Positions 17,134 through 26,762 of a stretch of DNA of 64,000 bases are shown one piece after another. Numbering within the stretch: position 1 is the stretch's first letter; each line of letters begins with the position of its first letter. A program made the position numbers and the translations under genes. The stretch covers positions 10,751-74,750 of the forward strand of contig CAYHBT010000001.1 of assembly GCA_964354935.1 (NCBI GenBank). The letters are read 5' to 3'. A model generated the notes under the pieces. It searched no databases and had not been told where the DNA came from. It saw only the letters and a list, made by a program, of their open reading frames with translations. The stretch comes from an uncultured Candidatus Saccharibacteria bacterium (GTDB lineage Bacteria; Patescibacteriota; Minisyncoccia; Phycocordibacterales; UBA9973).

Positions 17134-17799
17134 TCAATTTATCCAATCTAATTCTTCCTTTAACAGTTTTGCCGAGCTTGTTTTCACAAATTCATCATAT
17201 TCGTTTTTATTTTTAAACTGTCCGTTGATTATAGCAGTAATCAATAATTCTTCAAATCTATTTTTATTTACACAATCTTGATAGCTTGACCAAGGGTAAA
17301 TATTTTCTTTATTCAGCCACTCTTTTAATTCTCTTGGATTTCTGTGGATATACGCAGACAGGTATAGAAGCTGATTATTATCTTTTACATGTACTGCTTT
17401 GTATGGTCCCTGAAATAGGTGTCCTGATTTGTGGTATTTTGTATTGTAATATTTTGTATAACTATTCAAAACTCTTTGCATATATCTAGCGATACCATTT
17501 TCTTCAACTTCCTTAACGATCAAGTGAAAATGGTTTGACATTAAACAAAAAGAGGTGAGTTCCACGAATCTACCTTTTACGATTTCTTTTTTGGTTTTTA
17601 TATCAATGTCAAACACTGAGTGTTGGACAAATGATTTTATCGAACGACCAATCTGTTGAAAAACAGTAGGGGATTGAAAGTATAAAATTAAAAACAAAAA
17701 TCTTATTCTATCCATGTTGTCGTGAAAGATTAATTGTTTACTCATTCCGCGATTAAAGATATGATAATACTCTCCCGGTGCTATTTTTATATTTCTCAT
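17134..17799 (-). CDS. REP-associated tyrosine transposase (RAYT) copy 2
   Basis: GEYYHIFNRG, MSNHFHLIV and YIHRNPRE motifs. Confidence 0.8.
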   Translation of the reverse strand: MRNIKIAPGEYYHIFNRGMSKQLIFHDNMDRIRFLFLILYFQSPTVFQQIGRSIKSFVQHSVFDIDIKTKKEIVKGRFVELTSFCLMSNHFHLIVKEVEENGIARYMQRVLNSYTKYYNTKYHKSGHLFQGPYKAVHVKDNNQLLYLSAYIHRNPRELKEWLNKENIYPWSSYQDCVNKNRFEELLITAIINGQFKNKNEYDEFVKTSSAKLLKEELDWIN

Positions 17800-18693: not shown

Positions 18694-18733
18694 CAATTTT
18701 GATTTTTCTTTCTATTTTTGCTAGTATTTACTT

Positions 18734-18970
18734 ATGTTGCCGGAAGAAAGAGAACTTTTAAAAAAGAGTGTCAGTCTTGCGGAAGAGAATAATAAAATGC
18801 TTCATCTAATGAGGCGTTCTCAGCGGGTTTCGCAATTTATGAGCCTTTTGTATTGGGTGCTCATTATAGGTTCCGCCGTCGGCGCATATGTTCTTATCCA
18901 GCCGTATGTAGATCAAGTTGTGGAAACTTACGGAAGTTTTAGTTCGATGATTAAGAATTTTGCAAGATAA
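18734..18970 (+). CDS. hypothetical small membrane protein
   Basis: One predicted TM helix (LLYWVLIIGSAVGAYVLI). Confidence 0.35.
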   Translation: MLPEERELLKKSVSLAEENNKMLHLMRRSQRVSQFMSLLYWVLIIGSAVGAYVLIQPYVDQVVETYGSFSSMIKNFAR

Positions 18971-19058
18971 ATATATTGAGATGAAACTAAAAAAGTTGAA
19001 AAGACGTGATTATATTGCTAGTATAGTCAAAGATGGTTTTATAAAAATAAAACCTTAG

Positions 19059-19130
19059 GCCGAGGTAGCTCAGTAGTAGAGCTCTCCCCTGAAGAGGGAT
19101 AGGTCGGCAGTGCGATTCTGCCCCTCGGCA
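19059..19130 (+). tRNA. tRNA-Phe(GAA)
   Basis: Sequence gccgaggtagctcagtagtagagctctcccctGAAgagggataggtcggcagtgcgattctgcccctcggca. The T-loop reads tgcgatt, not the canonical ttcgatt. Confidence 0.75.
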
Positions 19131-19249
19131 CATATTCGGAATAAGTAGAGCCGACGCTGTACTCAGCTCCGACGATTCTGTCGGAGAGCCGACCTTGCGT
19201 CGGCTTTGGTAGTAGCGTTCCCCTCCGACGCTACGGTCGGAGCAGGCTG

Positions 19250-19306
19250 AAGAGGGATAGGTCACCAGTTCGATTCTGGTCCTCGGCACAAAGCACCAAC
19301 ATACAA
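19250..19306 (+). pseudogene. duplicated 3' half of tRNA-Phe (anticodon loop through acceptor end) with a canonical TTCGATT T-loop. It lies 120 nt downstream of the intact gene.
   Basis: ctgaagagggataggtcaccagttcgattctggtcctcggca parallels residues 32-73 of the upstream tRNA-Phe. Confidence 0.6.
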
Positions 19307-19308
19307 AA

Positions 19309-19334
19309 GAGCACACTGCTGTGCTCTTTTTCTG
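19309..19334 (+). terminator. rho-independent terminator (agagcacactgctgtgctct + TTTTT)
   Basis: Hairpin followed by a T-tract. Confidence 0.6.
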
Positions 19335-19575
19335 TGCTTTGTGCAGACGGAAGTATGTTTTTCTAGTAAGAAAAATAACTGAGTCCGGGGCTGGAAAATT
19401 TGCTTTTGACGGAAAGCAAATTATTGTGGCTCACATGAACTATGAACGCGAAGCGTTCTAATAATAGTATTCTCGCGGATTTCTTTTTAAAAATTCGGCG
19501 GGATTCGGAACTCTGCCCGCAGGAGAGATGTGCTATGAGGAATGTGTAGAGGATTTTTATACGAGATTCGTTTAG

Positions 19576-20538
19576 TTATTCTAATTCCAAGCCTATTCTG
19601 TTTTTTTTTGCTAAATTTAGATAATGTTTTCCAATTGCAATATCAAATATAGCCATACCCATTGGATTAAACATAACTGGCTGTTCTTTAGAATAAGATT
19701 TCATGCAGTTATTTATCACCATATCCACAATAGATTTCGTGTTCTCTTTCTGTAATGTTTTCTCAATGTGAAAAATTTCAATATCTGTTTTCTCCCTGCA
19801 CACTTCCTCCCAGTTATCTACTATTATTGAATTTTTCACAAACTCATACATATTGGTTTTATAATCTCGCAGTGACACATTAAGGAGTAAAGAACCTGGC
19901 TTTGGCTTTTTATCAATATATGTTTTTTTAGATACAGTGCATGTGATTACAACGTCACTTTGTTCGTATGCCTCTAACCAATTTCTTGCAATTACCACCT
20001 TGGGATTATTTTGAAAATTTTCTGGATCAATCTCTCGAAGATCATGAATAATAATTTTTGAAATTTTATCACCATATAATTCTTTGCACATATGATAGTG
20101 ATATTGACCGATGGGTCCAAAACCAATGATTCCAACGGTGAAACTATTTAAATTTCTAACTTGTAAAAAATATCTCAGGACTAAAGAACTTACGGATACT
20201 GTACGGATTATACTCAGACGATTGGCATTAATAATTGAGAGAAATTGACCCGTATTTGAGTTGTTTAGAATGATAACACTAGAAGCTCTCGGAATCTTTT
20301 TCTCGATATTTTTTGGGAAACTTGCAATCCATTTTATTCCAGCTATGTTGAATTTTCCACCAATATATGCTGGCATTGCAATGATCCTGTTTTTTAAATC
20401 CTTAAATCGTAGATATGGCTTAACAGGCTGAACTATGTCTGATTGGGCCAAACATTTAACCGCATCGACGATTATATCTGTGCACGATTTCCAATCAATA
20501 CCAAGCTTGTCTATATCTTTTTCATTTAAATAAATCAT
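19576..20538 (-). CDS. sbnB: SbnB-like NAD-dependent dehydrogenase (ornithine cyclodeaminase/mu-crystallin family). In SbnB this is the second step of L-2,3-diaminopropionate synthesis.
   Basis: Blocks VQPVKPYLR, RIIAMPAYIGGKFNIAGIKWIAS, VVITCTV and NPMGMAIFDI match S. aureus SbnB as recalled from memory. Translationally coupled to the upstream PLP enzyme (ATGA overlap). Confidence 0.7.
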   Translation of the reverse strand: MIYLNEKDIDKLGIDWKSCTDIIVDAVKCLAQSDIVQPVKPYLRFKDLKNRIIAMPAYIGGKFNIAGIKWIASFPKNIEKKIPRASSVIILNNSNTGQFLSIINANRLSIIRTVSVSSLVLRYFLQVRNLNSFTVGIIGFGPIGQYHYHMCKELYGDKISKIIIHDLREIDPENFQNNPKVVIARNWLEAYEQSDVVITCTVSKKTYIDKKPKPGSLLLNVSLRDYKTNMYEFVKNSIIVDNWEEVCREKTDIEIFHIEKTLQKENTKSIVDMVINNCMKSYSKEQPVMFNPMGMAIFDIAIGKHYLNLAKKNRIGLELE

Positions 20539-21491
20539 ATTGTTATTCCAAAATTTTCTTTACACCACTTAGCATTAAATATTGTGGTCAAGTATCGTTT
20601 ACCGTTGTCGGCAAAGATGGTTAACACAGTAGGTGGTTCAGCAAATGTTTTATTTTTGAAATAGGTCTCAATTGCAGATATTACAGATCCTGATGAACCA
20701 CCGACAAATAGGCCATGATCTTTTATAAGTCGATGGCACATTTCAATTGCTGATTTTTCTGGTACTTTTATGACTTCATCAATCTGAGCACTTTGCAGTA
20801 TTGACGGAACCATACTTGAACCCATTCCAGGGATATAACGTTTTTTTGGTTCACCGCCAAATATAATTGAACCTTCAGTATCGACTGCAATTATTTTTGT
20901 CTGAGGAAATAATTTCTTGATTTTTTGAGACACTCCTGTAATAGTTCCACCTGAACTTACGCCTACGAATACATAATCTATAATGGATAGATCATTACAA
21001 ATTTCAGTGCCTAATGTTTCATAATATGCAGCAGCATTGTATGGGTTGCTGTACTGGTTTACCCAGTATGAATTTGGGTATGCCGAAATTAGTTCCTTAA
21101 CTTTTTTGATGCGGTTGAGCAAGTAGCCTCCATTTCCATCAACTTCAGAAATCTTTGTGACATGCTCTGTCAGATTTTTCAAGATTGCTTCGTTGATGGG
21201 TGAGATGTTTTTGTCTATGATACAGTGGAATTTTAAGTCTAATTTTTTACAGTATGAAGCTAAGGAGATGCCTAAATTCCCCGATGACGACTCGATGATT
21301 ACAGTGTCTTTATTAATCTCACCAGTTGAAAGTACTTTATTAAGAATATAAGATGCAGCACGATCTTTAACGCTACCAGTTGGGTTATAGCCTTCCAGTT
21401 TTGCAAACAATTTAATATTGTCTAAACCATTATGGTTAATTTTAATGAGAGGAGTATTACCCACATTGTCTAGAAAATCTTTATATATCAT
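20535..21491 (-). CDS. sbnA: SbnA-like PLP-dependent enzyme (cysteine synthase fold). In SbnA this condenses O-phospho-L-serine with L-glutamate.
   Basis: KDR PLP-lysine region (TGSVKDRAASYIL), IESSSGNLGISLA, GGYLLNRIKKVKEL, YWVNQYSN, IIAVDTEGSIIFG and GMGSSMVPSIL, as in the SbnA family. Confidence 0.7.
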   Translation of the reverse strand: MIYKDFLDNVGNTPLIKINHNGLDNIKLFAKLEGYNPTGSVKDRAASYILNKVLSTGEINKDTVIIESSSGNLGISLASYCKKLDLKFHCIIDKNISPINEAILKNLTEHVTKISEVDGNGGYLLNRIKKVKELISAYPNSYWVNQYSNPYNAAAYYETLGTEICNDLSIIDYVFVGVSSGGTITGVSQKIKKLFPQTKIIAVDTEGSIIFGGEPKKRYIPGMGSSMVPSILQSAQIDEVIKVPEKSAIEMCHRLIKDHGLFVGGSSGSVISAIETYFKNKTFAEPPTVLTIFADNGKRYLTTIFNAKWCKENFGITI

Positions 21492-21646
21492 CGAAGTTCC
21501 TTTAATTTAGATGGTTAGTAATATATAATAGTATTTATTATTAGTCAAGCAAAACGTAATGGTTCAATAGCTTGAAATAATAAGACAGATCGAATACTTT
21601 TATGTTAATATATAAACACTTATCTATATTATAAATAAGTATAAAG

Positions 21647-22402
21647 ATGAAAGAAAATTTACCAAAACAAAATCCATCGCTCGGCATTAATGTTTTTAGA
21701 CACGGTAAATCACGATACAAACAAGAAGAAGTGCTAATTGAAGAAGCTAGGGACTTAACAGCAGAAGGAGTTGATGATGTTAAAAAAAGTGCTGAAGCAT
21801 TAGTTAAGCTTATTAAACCAGATGAAGAGGTTGAGATCTGGTCATCTCCGATGGGGAGAACATTACAAACTGCAAAAATAATTGCTCAGGTTTTAGAGGA
21901 AAAGCAAGTACATATTCGAAAAAAAGGAGATTCTAATAAACATGGGATAAAAGTTTTCGAACAATTTTCGGAAGTTAAAAATTTTTCGTGGAAACTTTTT
22001 TATCCACTTGTAGCTGGTGGTGAAGTTGAATTTGCTGGAAATCAACGAGACTTTCTATTACGTCGTTTATTTTCTCCTTCATTTAAAATGCCTTTAGTAA
22101 AAAATGTCTTAAAAGAAGGACTTGTTGAATTCAAACGAATAAGTAATATGGGTACGAATGATAAAAAAGGATTTAATCGTAAGTTTAGACGAAAAGATCG
22201 TCAGGAATTAAACTATTATCTAAATCATAAAGAAGAAGTAGGGTTTGGAAAAGCTATTTCTGAAGAAGATCAAATGACATTAACTCAAAATAATGCAAGA
22301 TTTTTAATCCAAAAAATGAACATTCCAGAGAGTATTTTAAATAAGCCTTTTCAGCAATTAAGTAATACTGAAATACAAATTTTAAGTGCTGCATTGCGTT
22401 AG
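21647..22402 (+). CDS. histidine phosphatase superfamily protein (phosphoglycerate mutase-like) with a C-terminal extension
   Basis: RHG motif (VFRHGKSRY) and IWSSPMGRTLQTA. Confidence 0.6.
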   Translation: MKENLPKQNPSLGINVFRHGKSRYKQEEVLIEEARDLTAEGVDDVKKSAEALVKLIKPDEEVEIWSSPMGRTLQTAKIIAQVLEEKQVHIRKKGDSNKHGIKVFEQFSEVKNFSWKLFYPLVAGGEVEFAGNQRDFLLRRLFSPSFKMPLVKNVLKEGLVEFKRISNMGTNDKKGFNRKFRRKDRQELNYYLNHKEEVGFGKAISEEDQMTLTQNNARFLIQKMNIPESILNKPFQQLSNTEIQILSAALR

Positions 22403-22484
22403 GTAAAAGATTAAAAAATTAAAGAAATATCCTTAGATTGATTTATGATTATTAGATCAATGATAGTATCTAAATAATTTTAAA

Positions 22485-23327
22485 ATGGACACAAATTATG
22501 GAAAAAAAACTGCTCCTCCCACTCAATTAATTGCTGAATCTTTTGGTTCTAGAAAAAAACCAGTCCCTTTGAAGGGTGGACAATGTACAACTTATATTTC
22601 TGGAAATATAGTTCTAAAACCAGTTGGACGCGCCGAATCATTAATCTGGAAAGCAGAAGTTTTTAACAATTTGCCCGAAGTTTCAGTTTCTAATGTTCGT
22701 TTCACTAAATACATTAAATCGATTTATAATACATGGATACACGAAGGTTATAGTGCATACTTTTTCTTAGCAGGAAAACATGTAAGTGGTAAATATAAAG
22801 AAAAATTAAAGGCTAGTTGCGAATATCATAAACTTCTTAAAAATATTAAAAAACCTAGTTTTTTAGATGTTCCCGGAGGTCCTTGGTCAACAGCTAATAA
22901 GGTTGCTTTAGATGAAAAGGAATTTGATTATGATTATGATTTTTTTGATTTATATAATCAGATAAAACCACATTTAGAACCCCTAGATAAAAATAAACAG
23001 TTAATTCACGCAGATTTATCAGGAAATTTTCTTTTTGATGAAATTTTACCTCCGGCCATTATAGATTTTTCTCCTGCTTGGGCGCCAAACGGATTTGCTG
23101 AAGCAATAATGTTGGCTGATGCAATTGTTTGGGAAAATGCTGACTACAAAGATTTGGAGGTTTTTAAGAAAGTACCTAATATTGGAAAATTGGTGTGGAG
23201 GGGAATTTTAACTAGAATTGTAGAACAAGCTGAACATATTAAATGGTTTGGTAAAGATAGAGTATTGGCTGTTAAGGACGCACAAGCATTTCAAAAGGCA
23301 ATAGATTATTTAAAAGTAAATTATTAG
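22485..23327 (+). CDS. APH/choline-kinase-like phosphotransferase family protein
   Basis: Gly-rich loop plus Lys (LKGGQCTTYISGNIVLKPV), catalytic loop HADLSGNFLF, and IDFSPAW. Confidence 0.5.
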   Translation: MDTNYGKKTAPPTQLIAESFGSRKKPVPLKGGQCTTYISGNIVLKPVGRAESLIWKAEVFNNLPEVSVSNVRFTKYIKSIYNTWIHEGYSAYFFLAGKHVSGKYKEKLKASCEYHKLLKNIKKPSFLDVPGGPWSTANKVALDEKEFDYDYDFFDLYNQIKPHLEPLDKNKQLIHADLSGNFLFDEILPPAIIDFSPAWAPNGFAEAIMLADAIVWENADYKDLEVFKKVPNIGKLVWRGILTRIVEQAEHIKWFGKDRVLAVKDAQAFQKAIDYLKVNY

Positions 23328-23347
23328 TTGCTCACAATTGAATTTTT

Positions 23348-23845
23348 CTAGAGCGATTTGACTTTAATGTTATTGGTTTTGTCTTTGTCCACTTTTTGCA
23401 GCTTGATGGTGAGCAGGCCGTGTTTTTCGGTCGCTTCGACTTCTTCCGGTTCTATTTCTTGCGGGAGTGAAAGAGTGCGAGAAAATCTTCCCCAATATAA
23501 TTCTTTGGTGAAATAATTTTCATCGTCTATATTGCGATGCTCTTCGCGTTGGCCGATGATGGTGATGATATCGCGAGCGATGGTCAACTCCAAATCTTCC
23601 GGTTTTACTCCGGCTACCATTGTCTGCACGACGATTTCCGTCGGAGTCTGATAGACATCGACTGCCAGCTCTGCTTCTTCATTTTCTTCTTCAATCCAAT
23701 TGTTGTTGGTCTCCTGTTTTTTTTCTTTATCGTTATTTTTACGCGAATGCGCGCCGACTGAAATTCTTTTCGGCTCTTCGTATTCTTCTTTTTCAGCGTG
23801 AGTATTTCCAGTTAGTCTATCCCAAAAACTTCTTTTTTTATCCAT
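23348..23845 (-). CDS. Hsp20/alpha-crystallin small heat-shock protein with a charged N-terminal extension
   Basis: Alpha-crystallin domain spanning VDVYQTPTEIVVQTMVAGVKPEDLELTIA through GLLTIKLQK. Confidence 0.75.
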   Translation of the reverse strand: MDKKRSFWDRLTGNTHAEKEEYEEPKRISVGAHSRKNNDKEKKQETNNNWIEEENEEAELAVDVYQTPTEIVVQTMVAGVKPEDLELTIARDIITIIGQREEHRNIDDENYFTKELYWGRFSRTLSLPQEIEPEEVEATEKHGLLTIKLQKVDKDKTNNIKVKSL

Positions 23846-23920: not shown

Positions 23921-24640
23921 TTATTTCATTCTTCTTACTTTTTCAAAAAGTAACATCATAATAATAGTCACGACCCACAAGAAACCAAACACTTTCAGAA
24001 AGTCATTTCCACTATTCCTTATTATAAAAAAATTAAAGACACTATGCAAGAGGATAGCCGAGATTAGGCCAAGAAAGAGGTACAATACTCTTTTAAACAT
24101 TCCGGAATACATAGAAATCCCGAGCATTATTCCTAAAATTCCACTAGAAACGGTGTGTAAAAGAGTCGATCCTAAAAATCTGAGCTCTCCGGTTAGCAAT
24201 CCGACCGTGTTTTGTCCCAATTGAAGCGGTTTGATTAAAAATAGGGCGTTTTCAAGGGCTGCAAAGCCCAAGGCGGCAGTTATTAAGTAAACTGGCCAAT
24301 CCATCGGTTCATCAATAAAGCTTGTTCGGGCGAGCACAATTAGCACTGCGAGATACTTGATCACTTCTTCGACGCTTGCCCAAAGCGCGATTTGACTTTC
24401 CGCTCCGCCGATATGCGTTTGGATAAATCTTTGTATGGGCAAAGCAAAAATCACTCCTGCCATACCAACGATAAATACCACCGCGAGAATCCCTTTTGGT
24501 TCAGGATTCCTTTTGTCTTCTTTGAGCCAAAACCACAACCATAAAAGAGAGGGAATAATTCCCCCTAAAAAAGCCAAGCCTAAAATTTTCGGGTCGCTAG
24601 TCATTTGGCTTGCCCGCCAAACTGGAGGGCCATTTTTCAA
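23921..24640 (-). CDS. PrsW-family intramembrane metalloprotease-like membrane protein
   Basis: Multiple TM helices. EEVIKY, FAALEN and HTVSSG motifs. Confidence 0.5.
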   Translation of the reverse strand: MKNGPPVWRASQMTSDPKILGLAFLGGIIPSLLWLWFWLKEDKRNPEPKGILAVVFIVGMAGVIFALPIQRFIQTHIGGAESQIALWASVEEVIKYLAVLIVLARTSFIDEPMDWPVYLITAALGFAALENALFLIKPLQLGQNTVGLLTGELRFLGSTLLHTVSSGILGIMLGISMYSGMFKRVLYLFLGLISAILLHSVFNFFIIRNSGNDFLKVFGFLWVVTIIMMLLFEKVRRMK

Positions 24641-26762
24641 CCATTAATAAATTTTTATTTTTAGTTGGCATCATAGACCATATTTCTTCAGTGACGAATG
24701 GAGTGAAAGGATGCAGAATTTTTAAAATTTTTATAAGAGTGCTAATTAAAAATTGTTTGCGTGAAAGTATTATTGCCTCATGTAAGTTTGCTGTTTCAAA
24801 AATTGATTTACTTTCTTCAATAATGATATCCGCAAATCGCCCCCATGTATAATGATAAATTTTTTCGGCAGCAATATAAAATTTATATTCGTCCATCTCT
24901 TTAGTTATTTCGCTGATTAAGTTGTCTATTTCTTTTATTTGGTCTTTATCTTCTTGATTAAAATCAGTAAAATTTTCATCATATTTTATATCTTTCGTAT
25001 TGTCCAAGACAAATCTTGTTATATTCCAAATTTTGTTTGCAAAATTTTTATAGCCCCTAATTTTATCTTCAGATAAAGCAAGCGAAGTTCCCGGAGTGTT
25101 ACCTACAACCATTCCCATACGAAATGCGTCAGTGCCGTATTTCTCCGTTAGTATTAATGGATCAATAACATTTCCTTTGCTTTTGCTCATTTTTTGCCCC
25201 TTTGCGTCTAGGACTAGTCCGTGCAGATAAACGGTGGTAAAAGGTACTTTTCCTGTTATGTAAAGTCCCAACATAATCATTCTCGAAACCCAAAAAAATA
25301 TTATTTCTCCGGCTGTTTCCATCACATCGGTCGGGTAAAATGTTTTAAAATCAGGGGAGTCAGGATAACCGAGAGTTACAAAAGGCCATTGGCCTGATGA
25401 AAACCAAGTATCAAAAGTGTCGTGGTCTTGTGTAACTTCACTGCTACATTTTTCACATTTTTCAATTTTGTTTTCTAGATCTACCATGCCATGTCCGCAT
25501 TTAGCGCAAATTTTTGCCGGAATGGGAATGCCCCAGACTATTTGTCTCGAGATATTCCAATCCATTATATTTTCTAGCCAGTAAGTTGTGATCTTTTTAT
25601 AATGCTCGGGAATATATTTTATTTCTTCATTATTTATTTTTTCTAACGCTTTTTCCGCGAGCGGTTTCATTTTTACGAACCATTGGCTTTTTATTTGTGG
25701 TTCAATGATTGTTCCGCATTTATAACAAGTTCGGACGACATGTTTATAATTTTCATCTATTTTTTCCACCAAACCTTTTTTTTGAAGTTTTTCAACTATC
25801 AATGCTCGCGCTTTTTTTATATGCTGTCCCGCGAACTCTCCAGCGATAGGGAGCAGTTTGCCATTTTCATCAATAACTTGCTCTTTATCTAAATTATGTC
25901 TTTCAGCTATTCCAAAGTCAGTCGCATCGTGCCAAGGAGTGATGGTCATTACACCAGTACCGAAATTCATATCCAAAGCATCGTCTTTTATGATCGTGGC
26001 CGTAATTTTTCCATTTATCCACTCCAATTCAAATTGCTCTCCATCTTCGTATTGTTTATAGCGTTTATCGTCAGGATGCATAACAACATATTTATCTCCG
26101 AATTTTGTTTCAGGTCTTGAAGTTGATATCGTAAATGGTCCATATTTTAAATAATAATATGGCTCAACTCTTTCTTCGTCTTTTATTTCAAGATCAGAAA
26201 AAGAAGTTTGATGTTTTGAGCACCAACTAACAATTCTATTTCCTCGATAGATTAAATTGTCATCATTCATTCTTTTAAATGTCTGATAGACAGTTTTTAT
26301 CACATCAGGATCAAGGGTAAATTTTTCTCGTGACCAATCACAGGAAGCTCCCATTTTTTTTATCTGAGATTTTATATTTTTTGAATTGGTGAGAGTAAAG
26401 TCTAAAATTTCTTTATATAGTTGTTTTGGTTCTATTTCAAATCTAGTTCGTCCTTCTTTTTCTAATTTTTTTTCATAAACAACTTGAGTTTCAAAACCGG
26501 CATGGTCTAGTCCCGGAAGCCAAAGCGTTTTGAATCCTCTCATTCTTTTGTAACGAACCATTATGTCTTCAATCGTCATCACTAAGCCGTGCCCGGCGTG
26601 CAGAGAACCATTAGCATTAGTCGGGGGCATTATGAGTGTAAAGGGCTTCGCCTTAGGATCAGCCGTTTTGTCCGGATTAAAAAAACCGCTATCTTCCCAT
26701 AGCTTGTAGATTCTTTCTTCGGTTTCTTTGGGGTTGTAGGGCTTTTTTAGCTTTTCGTCCAT
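24597..26762 (-). CDS. valS: valyl-tRNA synthetase (short C-terminus)
   Basis: PPTNANGSLHAGH (HIGH), KMSKSKGN, and an editing domain (TSRPET, GTGVMTITPWHD). Confidence 0.9.
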   Translation of the reverse strand: MDEKLKKPYNPKETEERIYKLWEDSGFFNPDKTADPKAKPFTLIMPPTNANGSLHAGHGLVMTIEDIMVRYKRMRGFKTLWLPGLDHAGFETQVVYEKKLEKEGRTRFEIEPKQLYKEILDFTLTNSKNIKSQIKKMGASCDWSREKFTLDPDVIKTVYQTFKRMNDDNLIYRGNRIVSWCSKHQTSFSDLEIKDEERVEPYYYLKYGPFTISTSRPETKFGDKYVVMHPDDKRYKQYEDGEQFELEWINGKITATIIKDDALDMNFGTGVMTITPWHDATDFGIAERHNLDKEQVIDENGKLLPIAGEFAGQHIKKARALIVEKLQKKGLVEKIDENYKHVVRTCYKCGTIIEPQIKSQWFVKMKPLAEKALEKINNEEIKYIPEHYKKITTYWLENIMDWNISRQIVWGIPIPAKICAKCGHGMVDLENKIEKCEKCSSEVTQDHDTFDTWFSSGQWPFVTLGYPDSPDFKTFYPTDVMETAGEIIFFWVSRMIMLGLYITGKVPFTTVYLHGLVLDAKGQKMSKSKGNVIDPLILTEKYGTDAFRMGMVVGNTPGTSLALSEDKIRGYKNFANKIWNITRFVLDNTKDIKYDENFTDFNQEDKDQIKEIDNLISEITKEMDEYKFYIAAEKIYHYTWGRFADIIIEESKSIFETANLHEAIILSRKQFLISTLIKILKILHPFTPFVTEEIWSMMPTKNKNLLMVEKWPSSLAGKPND

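Follow-up and report, generated by a model that had tools for sequence, protein, structure and literature searches.

Intact and hairpin-broken copies of a tRNA-Phe gene in a Candidate Phyla Radiation bacterium, probably left by a decayed GIY-YIG nuclease cassette

Why does a bacterial tRNA-Phe gene stand beside what looks like a second half of itself? The question was raised by 64,000 nucleotides (nt) of DNA from an uncultured Candidatus Saccharibacteria bacterium (GenBank assembly GCA_964354935.1, contig CAYHBT010000001.1, positions 10,751 to 74,750); this whole stretch is referred to as the window, and coordinates without a locus name are those of the window. A sequence-only reading of it had described an intact tRNA-Phe gene, a hairpin-rich insert and a duplicated 3' half, and had interpreted them as the mark of site-specific integration at a tRNA 3' end. 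Comparison with related loci of the Candidate Phyla Radiation (CPR), which are designated by L numbers, pointed to a different element. The locus is probably a decayed cassette of a free-standing, SegB-like GIY-YIG nuclease gene and palindromic hairpins, of a kind resident at tRNA genes of CPR bacteria. The "extra half tRNA" appears from the alignments to be the wreck of an older resident tRNA-Phe gene of one sequence class (class A), broken by palindromic hairpins, next to a working replacement of another class (class B).

ARAGORN called seven tRNA genes in the window, including the intact tRNA-Phe(GAA) (Table 1). A repeat finder detected a 44-nt direct repeat (19089-19132 and 19247-19290, 89% identity), and a degenerate 43-nt pattern matched the 64 kb twice, at the two tRNA-Phe copies, where 0 matches were expected. 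The intact gene and the second 44-nt copy were separated by 115 nt (19132-19246) containing three hairpins of the form CCGAC-N5-6-GTCGG, located at 19167-19186, 19187-19205 and 19223-19242. The window held four hairpins of this form, compared with 0.23 expected, and cassette-type hairpin units occurred in it at the tRNA-Phe locus only. Three assemblies made independently (ERR3856788, ERR3856787 and ERZ4201065) agreed at every base of the locus, which ruled out an assembly artefact. The atypical T-loop of the intact gene, the hairpins between the copies and the terminator after the second copy, all reported in the sequence-only reading, were confirmed.

The two copies belonged to different sequence classes. 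A scan of one genome per species, with a pattern running from the tRNA-Phe anticodon to the 3' end, returned 14 single-copy loci; those whose titles were informative all came from CPR (Patescibacteria) bacteria, namely Nomurabacteria, Saccharibacteria and Paceibacterota. Among these 14 loci, class A was the canonical form, with the D-loop AGTTGGTAG and the T-loop TTCGATT, and class B had the D-loop AGTAGTAG and the T-loop TGCGATT. The intact gene of the window was class B over its whole length, with G55 replacing U55 in the T-loop and A18 replacing G18 in an atypical D-loop without GG; the second copy was class A. A metagenome scan added 28 further class-B loci in the same gene neighbourhood, and class B was found in more than 30 CPR contigs. 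G55 was always paired with an A replacing G18 (35/35 G55 genes), which showed that class B was a coherent natural variant and not a chimera.

Gapped alignment showed that a whole class-A tRNA-Phe gene threads through 19150-19290, with the hairpins as insertion blocks. For the 5' part, the alignment of the upstream 115 nt with tRNA nt 1-33 scored 31, compared with 7.8 ± 3.2 for shuffled sequences, and 0 of 1000 shuffles reached 31. Because an entire interrupted gene was threaded, a simple duplication of the 3' half was excluded; the second copy had been correctly placed about 120 nt downstream, and its canonical T-loop and shared acceptor strand had been recognised; only its description as a 3' half had to be given up. 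The T-arm of this interrupted copy, hereafter the ghost, was canonical (ACCAG TTCGATT CTGGT), and its 3' acceptor strand was that of the intact gene. Its D-stem contained one extra T (within 19206-19222), and its 5' end was degenerate: it had gained three bases, lacked G10 and contained one mismatch in the acceptor. Alternatively, AGCCGACGCT (19149-19158) could be read as the 5' arm and loop of a truncated hairpin joined to ...GTAG, which parallels the canonical TAG/AGCCGAC junction of L025, L048, L049, L053 and L062. Sequence comparison also gave a tentative resemblance of the spacer ATATTCGGAATAAGTAGA to CTCATTCGGTATATAAATA in the ghost tRNA of L025. Removal of the hairpins did not restore a canonical tRNA, as the 5' indels and the acceptor mismatch stayed. 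The interrupted copy was not called as a tRNA by ARAGORN or Rfam, and the spacer had no Rfam match even at E ≤ 10 and no group I, group II or bulge-helix-bulge signature.

Table 1. Coordinates of the features at the tRNA-Phe locus and in its downstream flank.
Feature	Position	Strand	Basis and remarks
GIY-YIG nuclease remnant: last 27 codons (IEMKLKKLKRRDYIASIVKDGFIKIKP) and stop	18975..19058	+	Abuts nt 1 of the intact tRNA-Phe
Promoter-like TTGAAA-17-TAGTAT with upstream TG	18996..19024	+	Consensus scan; inside the nuclease remnant, 34 nt 5' of the tRNA
Intact tRNA-Phe(GAA), class B	19059..19131	+	ARAGORN; Rfam tRNA 62.4 bits (19059-19130)
Spacer ATATTCGGAATAAGTAGA between intact tRNA and ghost	19132..19149	+	Sequence comparison
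Degenerate ghost nt 1-15, GCCGAcgcTGTA-CTCAG	19150..19166	+	Gapped alignment to class-A tRNA-Phe
Tandem hairpin pair (39 nt) between ghost nt 15 and 16	19167..19205	+	CTCCGAC-GATTCT-GTCGGAG and AGCCGAC-CTTGC-GTCGGCT
Ghost nt 16-31, TTGGTAGtAGCGTTCCC, class-A D-loop	19206..19222	+	16/16 match to class A; direct-repeat family D3
Single hairpin CTCCGAC-GCTACG-GTCGGAG with CAGG tail (24 nt)	19223..19246	+	Between ghost nt 31 and 32 (edge of anticodon loop)
Ghost nt 32-75, anticodon loop to discriminator	19247..19290	+	44/44 identical to class A of L003, L004, L006 and L008
Terminator-like hairpin and T run	19305..19330	+	Ancestral class-A terminator; kept after the intact class-A gene of L004
Conserved structured element	19338..19437	+	RNAalifold, 7 loci: 22 pairs, 12 compensatory; outside the duplication
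Island of ~3.9 kb	19438..23340	.	Absent from all relatives (synteny); before the convergent Hsp20

The DNA on the 5' side of the intact gene showed what kind of element had been there. Positions 18975-19055 matched residues 60-86 of a GIY-YIG protein of L025 (85% identity, E = 1.7e-9, tblastn) and aligned residue by residue with the C-termini of the full-length genes in L025, L048, L049 and L052. In L028, the closest upstream relative, exactly these 84 nt (18975-19058) were absent, and in L025/L043 a GIY-YIG open reading frame (ORF) of 86 amino acids (aa) lay between the upstream ORF and the tRNA. Full-length relatives matched PF01541 (GIY-YIG) with E values of 2.7e-14 and 3.4e-15, covering residues 2-70, and the nearest solved structures were the single-domain UPF0213 proteins 1zg2 and 1ywl. 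A protein search returned 101 homologues, all of CPR type where the source was named.

Genomic context was looked up for 10 of the 101 homologues, which together with L025, L042 and L033/L036 gave 13 distinct lineages. The nuclease gene adjoined a tRNA gene in all 13 of them and stood directly 5' of the intact tRNA in 12. Within the family proper, the adjoining tRNA was tRNA-Phe in seven lineages (L025/L043, L048, L049-51, L052, L053-56, L057-60 and L061), tRNA-Val in two (L062 and L063/64), tRNA-Thr in one (L066/67) and tRNA-Met in one (L068). More distant GIY-YIG genes had the same layout at tRNA-Phe with a different palindrome (L042) and at tRNA-Glu (L033/L036). The order in 12 of the 13 lineages was a 5' piece of the tRNA split by a hairpin or hairpin pair, the next tRNA nucleotides, a spacer, the nuclease ORF and the intact tRNA. 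The canonical cassette started after the upstream gene; the duplicated 5' piece comprised nt 1-10, 1-15 or 1-25 of the tRNA, and the stop codon of the 86-90-aa nuclease ORF lay 0-13 nt before the tRNA or was the TAG of tRNA nt 8-10. A hairpin lay directly beside every inspected full-length nuclease gene of the family, within the tRNA fragment. The hairpin pair was located 4-30 nt 5' of the nuclease start codon in all inspected family loci except L068, in which the nuclease was frameshifted and a hairpin-split fragment lay between the nuclease and the intact tRNA. In a literature search of incomplete coverage, directed at GIY-YIG with tRNA in CPR, at COG2827/UPF0213 and at palindromic insertions in tRNA genes of Patescibacteria, no published account was found in which a minimal GIY-YIG gene is fixed to the 5' end of tRNA genes next to a tRNA fragment split by a hairpin.

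Decay of the nuclease gene was visible in the window and in L040, where nt 1-10 of the tRNA and a few nuclease-derived bases remained. Ghosts were found in several other lineages. In L025, the nuclease and the tRNA were separated by a mere skeleton, in which tRNA nt 1-10 were followed by two hairpins, 19 nt and the final 8 tRNA nucleotides, and in L014 and L062 3' ghosts lay farther downstream. In L057-L060, a second, partial tRNA-Phe copy beginning near nt 24 was located 58 nt past the intact one; it carried a CCGAC hairpin between nt 31 and 32 and another that replaced the 3' strand of the anticodon stem, and it ended with a perfect T-arm, the acceptor strand and a terminator. The insertion between nt 31 and 32 of this ghost (TGCCGACGTAAAGTCGGCA CAAG / CTGAAGAG) was homologous to that of the window, and a tail akin to the CAGG tail of the window occurred in L036 (GTCGGGAGCAGG/CTGG). 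The 23-nt hairpin unit GCCGACGTAAAGTCGGCACAAGC of the ghost was present in three tandem copies in L057/L060 versus one in L058/L059 (~1915-1985), in contigs otherwise 98.6% identical. A search for the recurrent anticodon-loop insertion as TCCCCT-N10-40-CTGAAGAGGGATAGGTC gave 0 matches in metagenome contigs; such insertions came up via protein neighbours (L057-60). At the tRNA-Thr locus L066 a Phe-type ghost was found (GCCGGGGTAG CTCAG, hairpin pair, TCGGTAG), and the simplest reading of it would be that a cassette moved between tRNA genes sharing D-arm sequence.

About 30 cassette-type hairpin units were found over ~0.45 Mb of related loci, in several contexts. In the cassette-linked hairpins the CCGAC/GTCGG core was invariant, and the two outer pairs were always Watson-Crick and covaried (AG/CT, GG/CC, TC/GA, CC/GG, CT/AG and TG/CA); such outer pairs were absent from chance matches. 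The insertion sites repeated among lineages, at tRNA nt 10/11, 15/16 and 31/32, and the pair was oriented one way at nt 10/11 and as the reverse complement at nt 15/16. The arrangement at nt 15/16 of the window ghost, CTCAG-pair-TTGG, was also present in L052, L063 and L066. A derivation of the hairpins from the local acceptor stem GCCGAGG was rejected, as the CCGAC core also occurred beside the acceptors GCCTGGG, GCCAAGA and GCGCGAT.

Synteny showed which of the two copies was the older resident. In the relatives, tRNA-Phe lay between a small conserved ORF (18734-18970 in the window) and a convergent Hsp20 gene (23348-23845 in the window). In L004 (Nomurabacteria), the terminator and ~100-nt element that the window has at 19291-19437 came after an intact class-A tRNA-Phe, so that the class-A copy of the window sits in the ancestral context. 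The 3' half of the window ghost, the terminator and the ~100-nt element were 92.6% identical to L004 over 190 nt, and the flanking genes were 69-78% identical. The upstream ORF of the window was 92% identical to that of L028 (class B, no insertion), and the Hsp20 gene only 76%. The unequal identity of the flanks identified the locus as a mosaic with seams at the tRNA. Presence and absence of a cassette could be compared directly in L034 (empty) and L025 (415-nt cassette), which were 95.7-98% identical in most of the flanking sequence. The right end of this cassette was tRNA nt 1, and the ORF just upstream was only 82.7% identical, as expected for a co-conversion tract if the cassette was copied in by repair. 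L049 and L050 shared 97.9% identity as far as the final base of tRNA-Phe, and past that point their sequences were unrelated, which made the tRNA 3' end a rearrangement breakpoint as well. A 53-nt segment containing GAGCGACGGCGAG was in inverted orientation between L049 and L050.

Cleavage by the nuclease and mobility of the cassette are suggested by this anatomy and by comparison, and adjacency suggests the tRNA gene as the target. The nuclease would cleave tRNA genes within or close to their conserved D-arm, TAG^CTCAG^TTGGTAGAGC, and repair from a cassette-bearing template would copy the nuclease gene, a functional tRNA and the adjoining flank into the broken locus, a form of homing in the manner of SegB of phages T4 and T6. 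The hairpins may inactivate extra copies of the target, or may be cis sites or a structure recognised by the 86-aa nuclease. An element of the form {hairpin}[nt 16-25]-nuclease-[nt 1-15] would insert between tRNA nt 15 and 16. Recombination between the repeated TTGGTAGAGC segments would then drop the nuclease and leave a solo hairpin pair in an otherwise complete tRNA; the window ghost, with its hairpin pair between nt 15 and 16, looks like the product of such an event. With two tRNA-Phe copies present, one would become dispensable and be kept only as a hairpin-bearing wreck, and the loss that made the ghost would have been survivable only because the class-B copy was present. The nuclease gene would afterwards decay, as homing endonuclease genes do after fixation.

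Several points weigh against a nuclease cassette as the source of the locus. The order in the window was not canonical, as the hairpin module lay 3' of the intact tRNA and the left ghost was missing, so that the history needs at least a deletion and an illegitimate junction. A reconstituted intact tRNA would keep the presumed target, which leaves self-immunity unexplained. The GIY-YIG proteins had 85-90 aa and consisted of the bare catalytic domain without a separate DNA-binding domain. The site specificity of SegB and I-TevI comes from an added DNA-binding domain. The cassette does not account for the odd T-loop of the intact gene, because the tRNA behind the nuclease was of class A or B: the tRNA that followed a full-length cassette was class-A-like in L049-56 and L061, whereas it belonged to class B in L025, L042 and L048. 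The idea that class B, with its G55 T-loop, was a nuclease-resistant allele carried by the cassette was rejected as a simple rule, both classes being found behind cassettes. Furthermore, the hairpins could be independent elements. CCGAC hairpin pairs without a nuclease gene were found in the valyl-tRNA synthetase (ValRS) genes of L041 and L042 and 5' of Hsp20 in L003, and a Y1_Tnp (IS200-like) ORF of 221 aa (17134-17799, - strand, E = 3e-9) lay 1.3 kb upstream of the locus in the window.

The last two observations carry the strongest of the other explanations, which we consider unlikely: tRNA-Phe would have been duplicated in tandem or acquired horizontally, the spare copy would have decayed, hairpins similar to repetitive extragenic palindromic (REP) sequences or miniature inverted-repeat transposable elements (MITEs) would have landed in it, possibly by way of the Y1 transposase, and the GIY-YIG gene would be a non-causal neighbour. 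Palindromic invaders of coding and RNA genes are known, namely the Rickettsia palindromic elements and the GC clusters of yeast mitochondria. The ValRS insertions resemble the invasion of coding genes by the Rickettsia elements, as the 39-nt hairpin pair lay in frame in the C-terminal linker (L041 1346-1388, L042 4126-4168; context ...EEIWQILL-PRRKVGEPTEASA-LMVEKWP), and the window orthologue (24597-26762) was without the insert. Hairpins that landed independently are, however, hard to reconcile with the hairpin found inside a tRNA fragment beside each full-length family nuclease or with sites in these fragments that repeat among lineages. The distant nuclease subfamilies had different palindromes at the same place, which argues that hairpin and nuclease travel as a unit. 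The Y1 ORF was kept in L006 (78% nucleotide identity); no CCGAC hairpins were found at its flanks, and its match to the model of REP-associated tyrosine transposases (RAYTs) was below threshold (33 bits, cut-off 80).

The explanation of the sequence-only reading was that an element integrated by a tyrosine or serine recombinase gave tRNA-Phe a new 3' half and was later mostly deleted, leaving a 115-nt scar between two attachment (att) sites, attL and attR. The direct repeat of tRNA nt 32-75 around a short insert, the ancestral terminator on the downstream copy and the variable cargo found past tRNA-Phe in relatives are in keeping with it, and it was right in three respects: the downstream copy was the displaced original, with the ancestral terminator and the context of L004, a decayed mobile element was probably involved, and the intact gene was an incomer of another type. 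The integrase and att mechanism itself is very improbable. No recombinase or integrase was detected in the ORFs at 17.1-24.6 kb of the window (Pfam, NCBIfam) or at 12.7-25 kb of L015 (Pfam), where a Y1-type ORF was the sole transposase-like one, and the element was probably a GIY-YIG cassette with palindromic hairpins, situated 5' of the tRNA. In the intact gene the foreign class extended to the 5' half, D-loop included, so this gene did not arise by fusion of a resident 5' half with a 3' half from an element. The ghost kept nt 16-31 and a degenerate nt 1-15, and the spacer was homologous to the hairpin module of nuclease cassettes. The proposed search for the att-like repeat elsewhere returned, for the 43-mer, the 14 single-copy CPR loci and 0 matches in a viral collection.

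Least probable of all is that the interrupted copy works, its hairpins being removed from the transcript as in insertions of CPR rRNA genes so that two tRNA-Phe species are made: its 3' 44 nt were perfectly conserved and followed by their own terminator, homologous hairpins occurred at the same tRNA position in two lineages, and insertions in CPR rRNA genes, some encoding GIY-YIG proteins, are on record (PMC11270868), but its degenerate 5' end, the extra T in the D-stem, the failure of both tRNA callers, the missing intron signatures and the loss of large tRNA parts from the ghosts of L025, L014 and L057-60 speak against it, and a single tRNA with a long insertion, the other option of the sequence-only reading, is likewise not supported, as the intact gene needs no splicing.

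Among known systems, the closest to the cassette appears to be SegB. SegB is a GIY-YIG homing endonuclease in the tRNA cluster of T4 and T6 that recognises a conserved tRNA motif and drives the co-inheritance of its own gene with flanking tRNA genes and the recombination-dependent tandem amplification of an adjacent tRNA gene (PMC2330249; PMC13096335). The cassettes share with it a GIY-YIG gene among or beside tRNA genes, and the duplicated tRNA, the mosaic flanks and the decaying nuclease gene of the window are the footprints expected of a SegB-type element. Unlike the phage gene, the cassettes belong to the genomes of cells, those of CPR bacteria, and the search of the viral collection found none; their nuclease, known here from sequence, is a bare UPF0213-like catalytic domain, its gene has a fixed position directly 5' of one tRNA, and no counterpart of the duplicated 5' fragment of the tRNA, with the conserved palindrome that splits it, is described for SegB. 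Carriage of the cassette by phages was rejected, as viral contigs gave 0 hairpin-module matches and only one spurious protein match.

The integrative elements that target tRNA genes (islands, prophages, integrative and conjugative elements) are similar to the cassette in outcome only. They likewise have a tRNA landing site, a restored intact tRNA, a displaced partial repeat and variable cargo, whereas the cassette has no integrase and duplicates and restores the tRNA 5' end, not the 3' end, and the window received a whole tRNA of another class. The cassette hairpins resemble REP/REPIN-RAYT systems, the palindromic elements of Rickettsia and the GC clusters of yeast mitochondria: they are G+C-rich in an A+T-rich genome, their core is conserved while the stems covary, and they are present in both orientations in intergenic DNA, in copies of RNA genes and in frame in a protein gene. 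The units described here differ from them in their size (~20 nt, or ~40 nt as a pair), in being tied to a GIY-YIG gene and not to a Y1 transposase, and in recurring at specific tRNA positions. GIY-YIG ORFs are also found in non-group I/II insertions of CPR rRNA genes, where they are reported to be sparse and to give no sign of homing (PMC11270868). These are from the same organism group and link a GIY-YIG ORF to a structural RNA gene as well, whereas at many loci the neighbour of the cassette ORF is an intact tRNA, accompanied by a 5' fragment that is duplicated and split by a hairpin.

A more general reading is tentative. The cassettes may form a class of selfish CPR elements in which a GIY-YIG nuclease of ~86 aa and a cognate ~20-nt hairpin home into the D-arm of Phe, Val, Thr, Met and Glu tRNA genes, regenerate or bring an intact tRNA, hop between tRNAs with TAGCTCAGTTGGTAGAGC and shed solo, non-autonomous hairpins into ghosts and protein genes. 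If so, the hairpin would be the recognition structure of the nuclease, in place of the missing DNA-binding domain, and the protein would be a candidate for a structure-guided minimal nuclease. SegB-type, tRNA-linked homing would then not be confined to phages but would also occur in cells with very few genes, in which a single-copy tRNA gene would be an unusually safe and conserved landing site. The odd half tRNA of the window can be read as a fossil: one tRNA-Phe gene was replaced by another of a different sequence class, and the tRNA-Phe locus is a recombination seam between ancestries. To our knowledge, small GIY-YIG proteins of the UPF0213/COG2827 type are very common and have no established function; a subfamily locked to the 5' ends of tRNA genes, always beside a tRNA fragment split by a hairpin, offers a hypothesis concrete enough for testing at the bench. 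For annotation, ghosts of this kind may pass for att sites or for tRNA pseudogene noise.

The class-B tRNA-Phe is of interest apart from the cassette. U55, a pseudouridine in the mature tRNA, is near-universal in the T-loop, and the joint change of G55 and A18 looks like covariation of the G18-psi55 tertiary contact; the G55 tRNA-Phe poses the question of what role TruB and TrmA have in these organisms. One intermediate tRNA-Phe (n = 1) combined AGTTAGTA with TGCGATC, and the tRNA-Phe of the L057 lineage had C55 (TCCGATT).

Downstream of the duplication, the ~100-nt structured element was found 3' of tRNA-Phe or tRNA-Val in the window, L004, L003, L014, L021, L024 and L062, with the consensus GTGAG.CGGAG-[hairpin]-GAG.CGGGGTCGCG-[hairpin with GACGG loop]-CGTGACC. 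Its place in L014 and L062 was between the intact tRNA and the 3' end of the ghost. No Rfam family reached threshold; the best match, a glutamine riboswitch, was rejected at 14.9 bits against a cut-off of 35, and the element is a candidate for a new structured RNA or for another mobile module. Its 3' end was the left copy of an imperfect 17/18-nt direct repeat (AATTATTGTGGCTCACA, 19421-19437; AATTATTAGTTGCTCACA, 23321-23338) that flanked the ~3.9-kb island. This island carried an ornithine cyclodeaminase-like gene and a gene for a pyridoxal phosphate (PLP)-dependent enzyme, which form an SbnA/B-like pair, a histidine phosphatase gene and a TIGR02569-like ORF (Pfam, NCBIfam); no recombinase was found in it with the same two databases. 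The SbnAB-like island had been correctly located just beyond the tRNA locus, and its own flanking repeat marked it as a separate insertion. Other cargo past tRNA-Phe in relatives comprised cupin and TrmB genes (L053-56), a PLP enzyme gene (L050) and a major facilitator superfamily (MFS) transporter gene (L025, L027 and L034).

The promoter-like motif inside the nuclease remnant recurred in the 3' ends of the full-length nuclease genes of L025, L048 and L052. The 3' end of the nuclease gene may have survived in the window because it holds this putative promoter of the tRNA. The 10-mer TTGCTAGTAT occurred twice in the window, at 18718-18727 and at 19015-19024, and both copies look like extended -10 elements; the second was within the nuclease remnant, and the first immediately preceded the small conserved ORF at 18734, at a place occupied in many relatives by TTTTTGCTAGTATTTAC.

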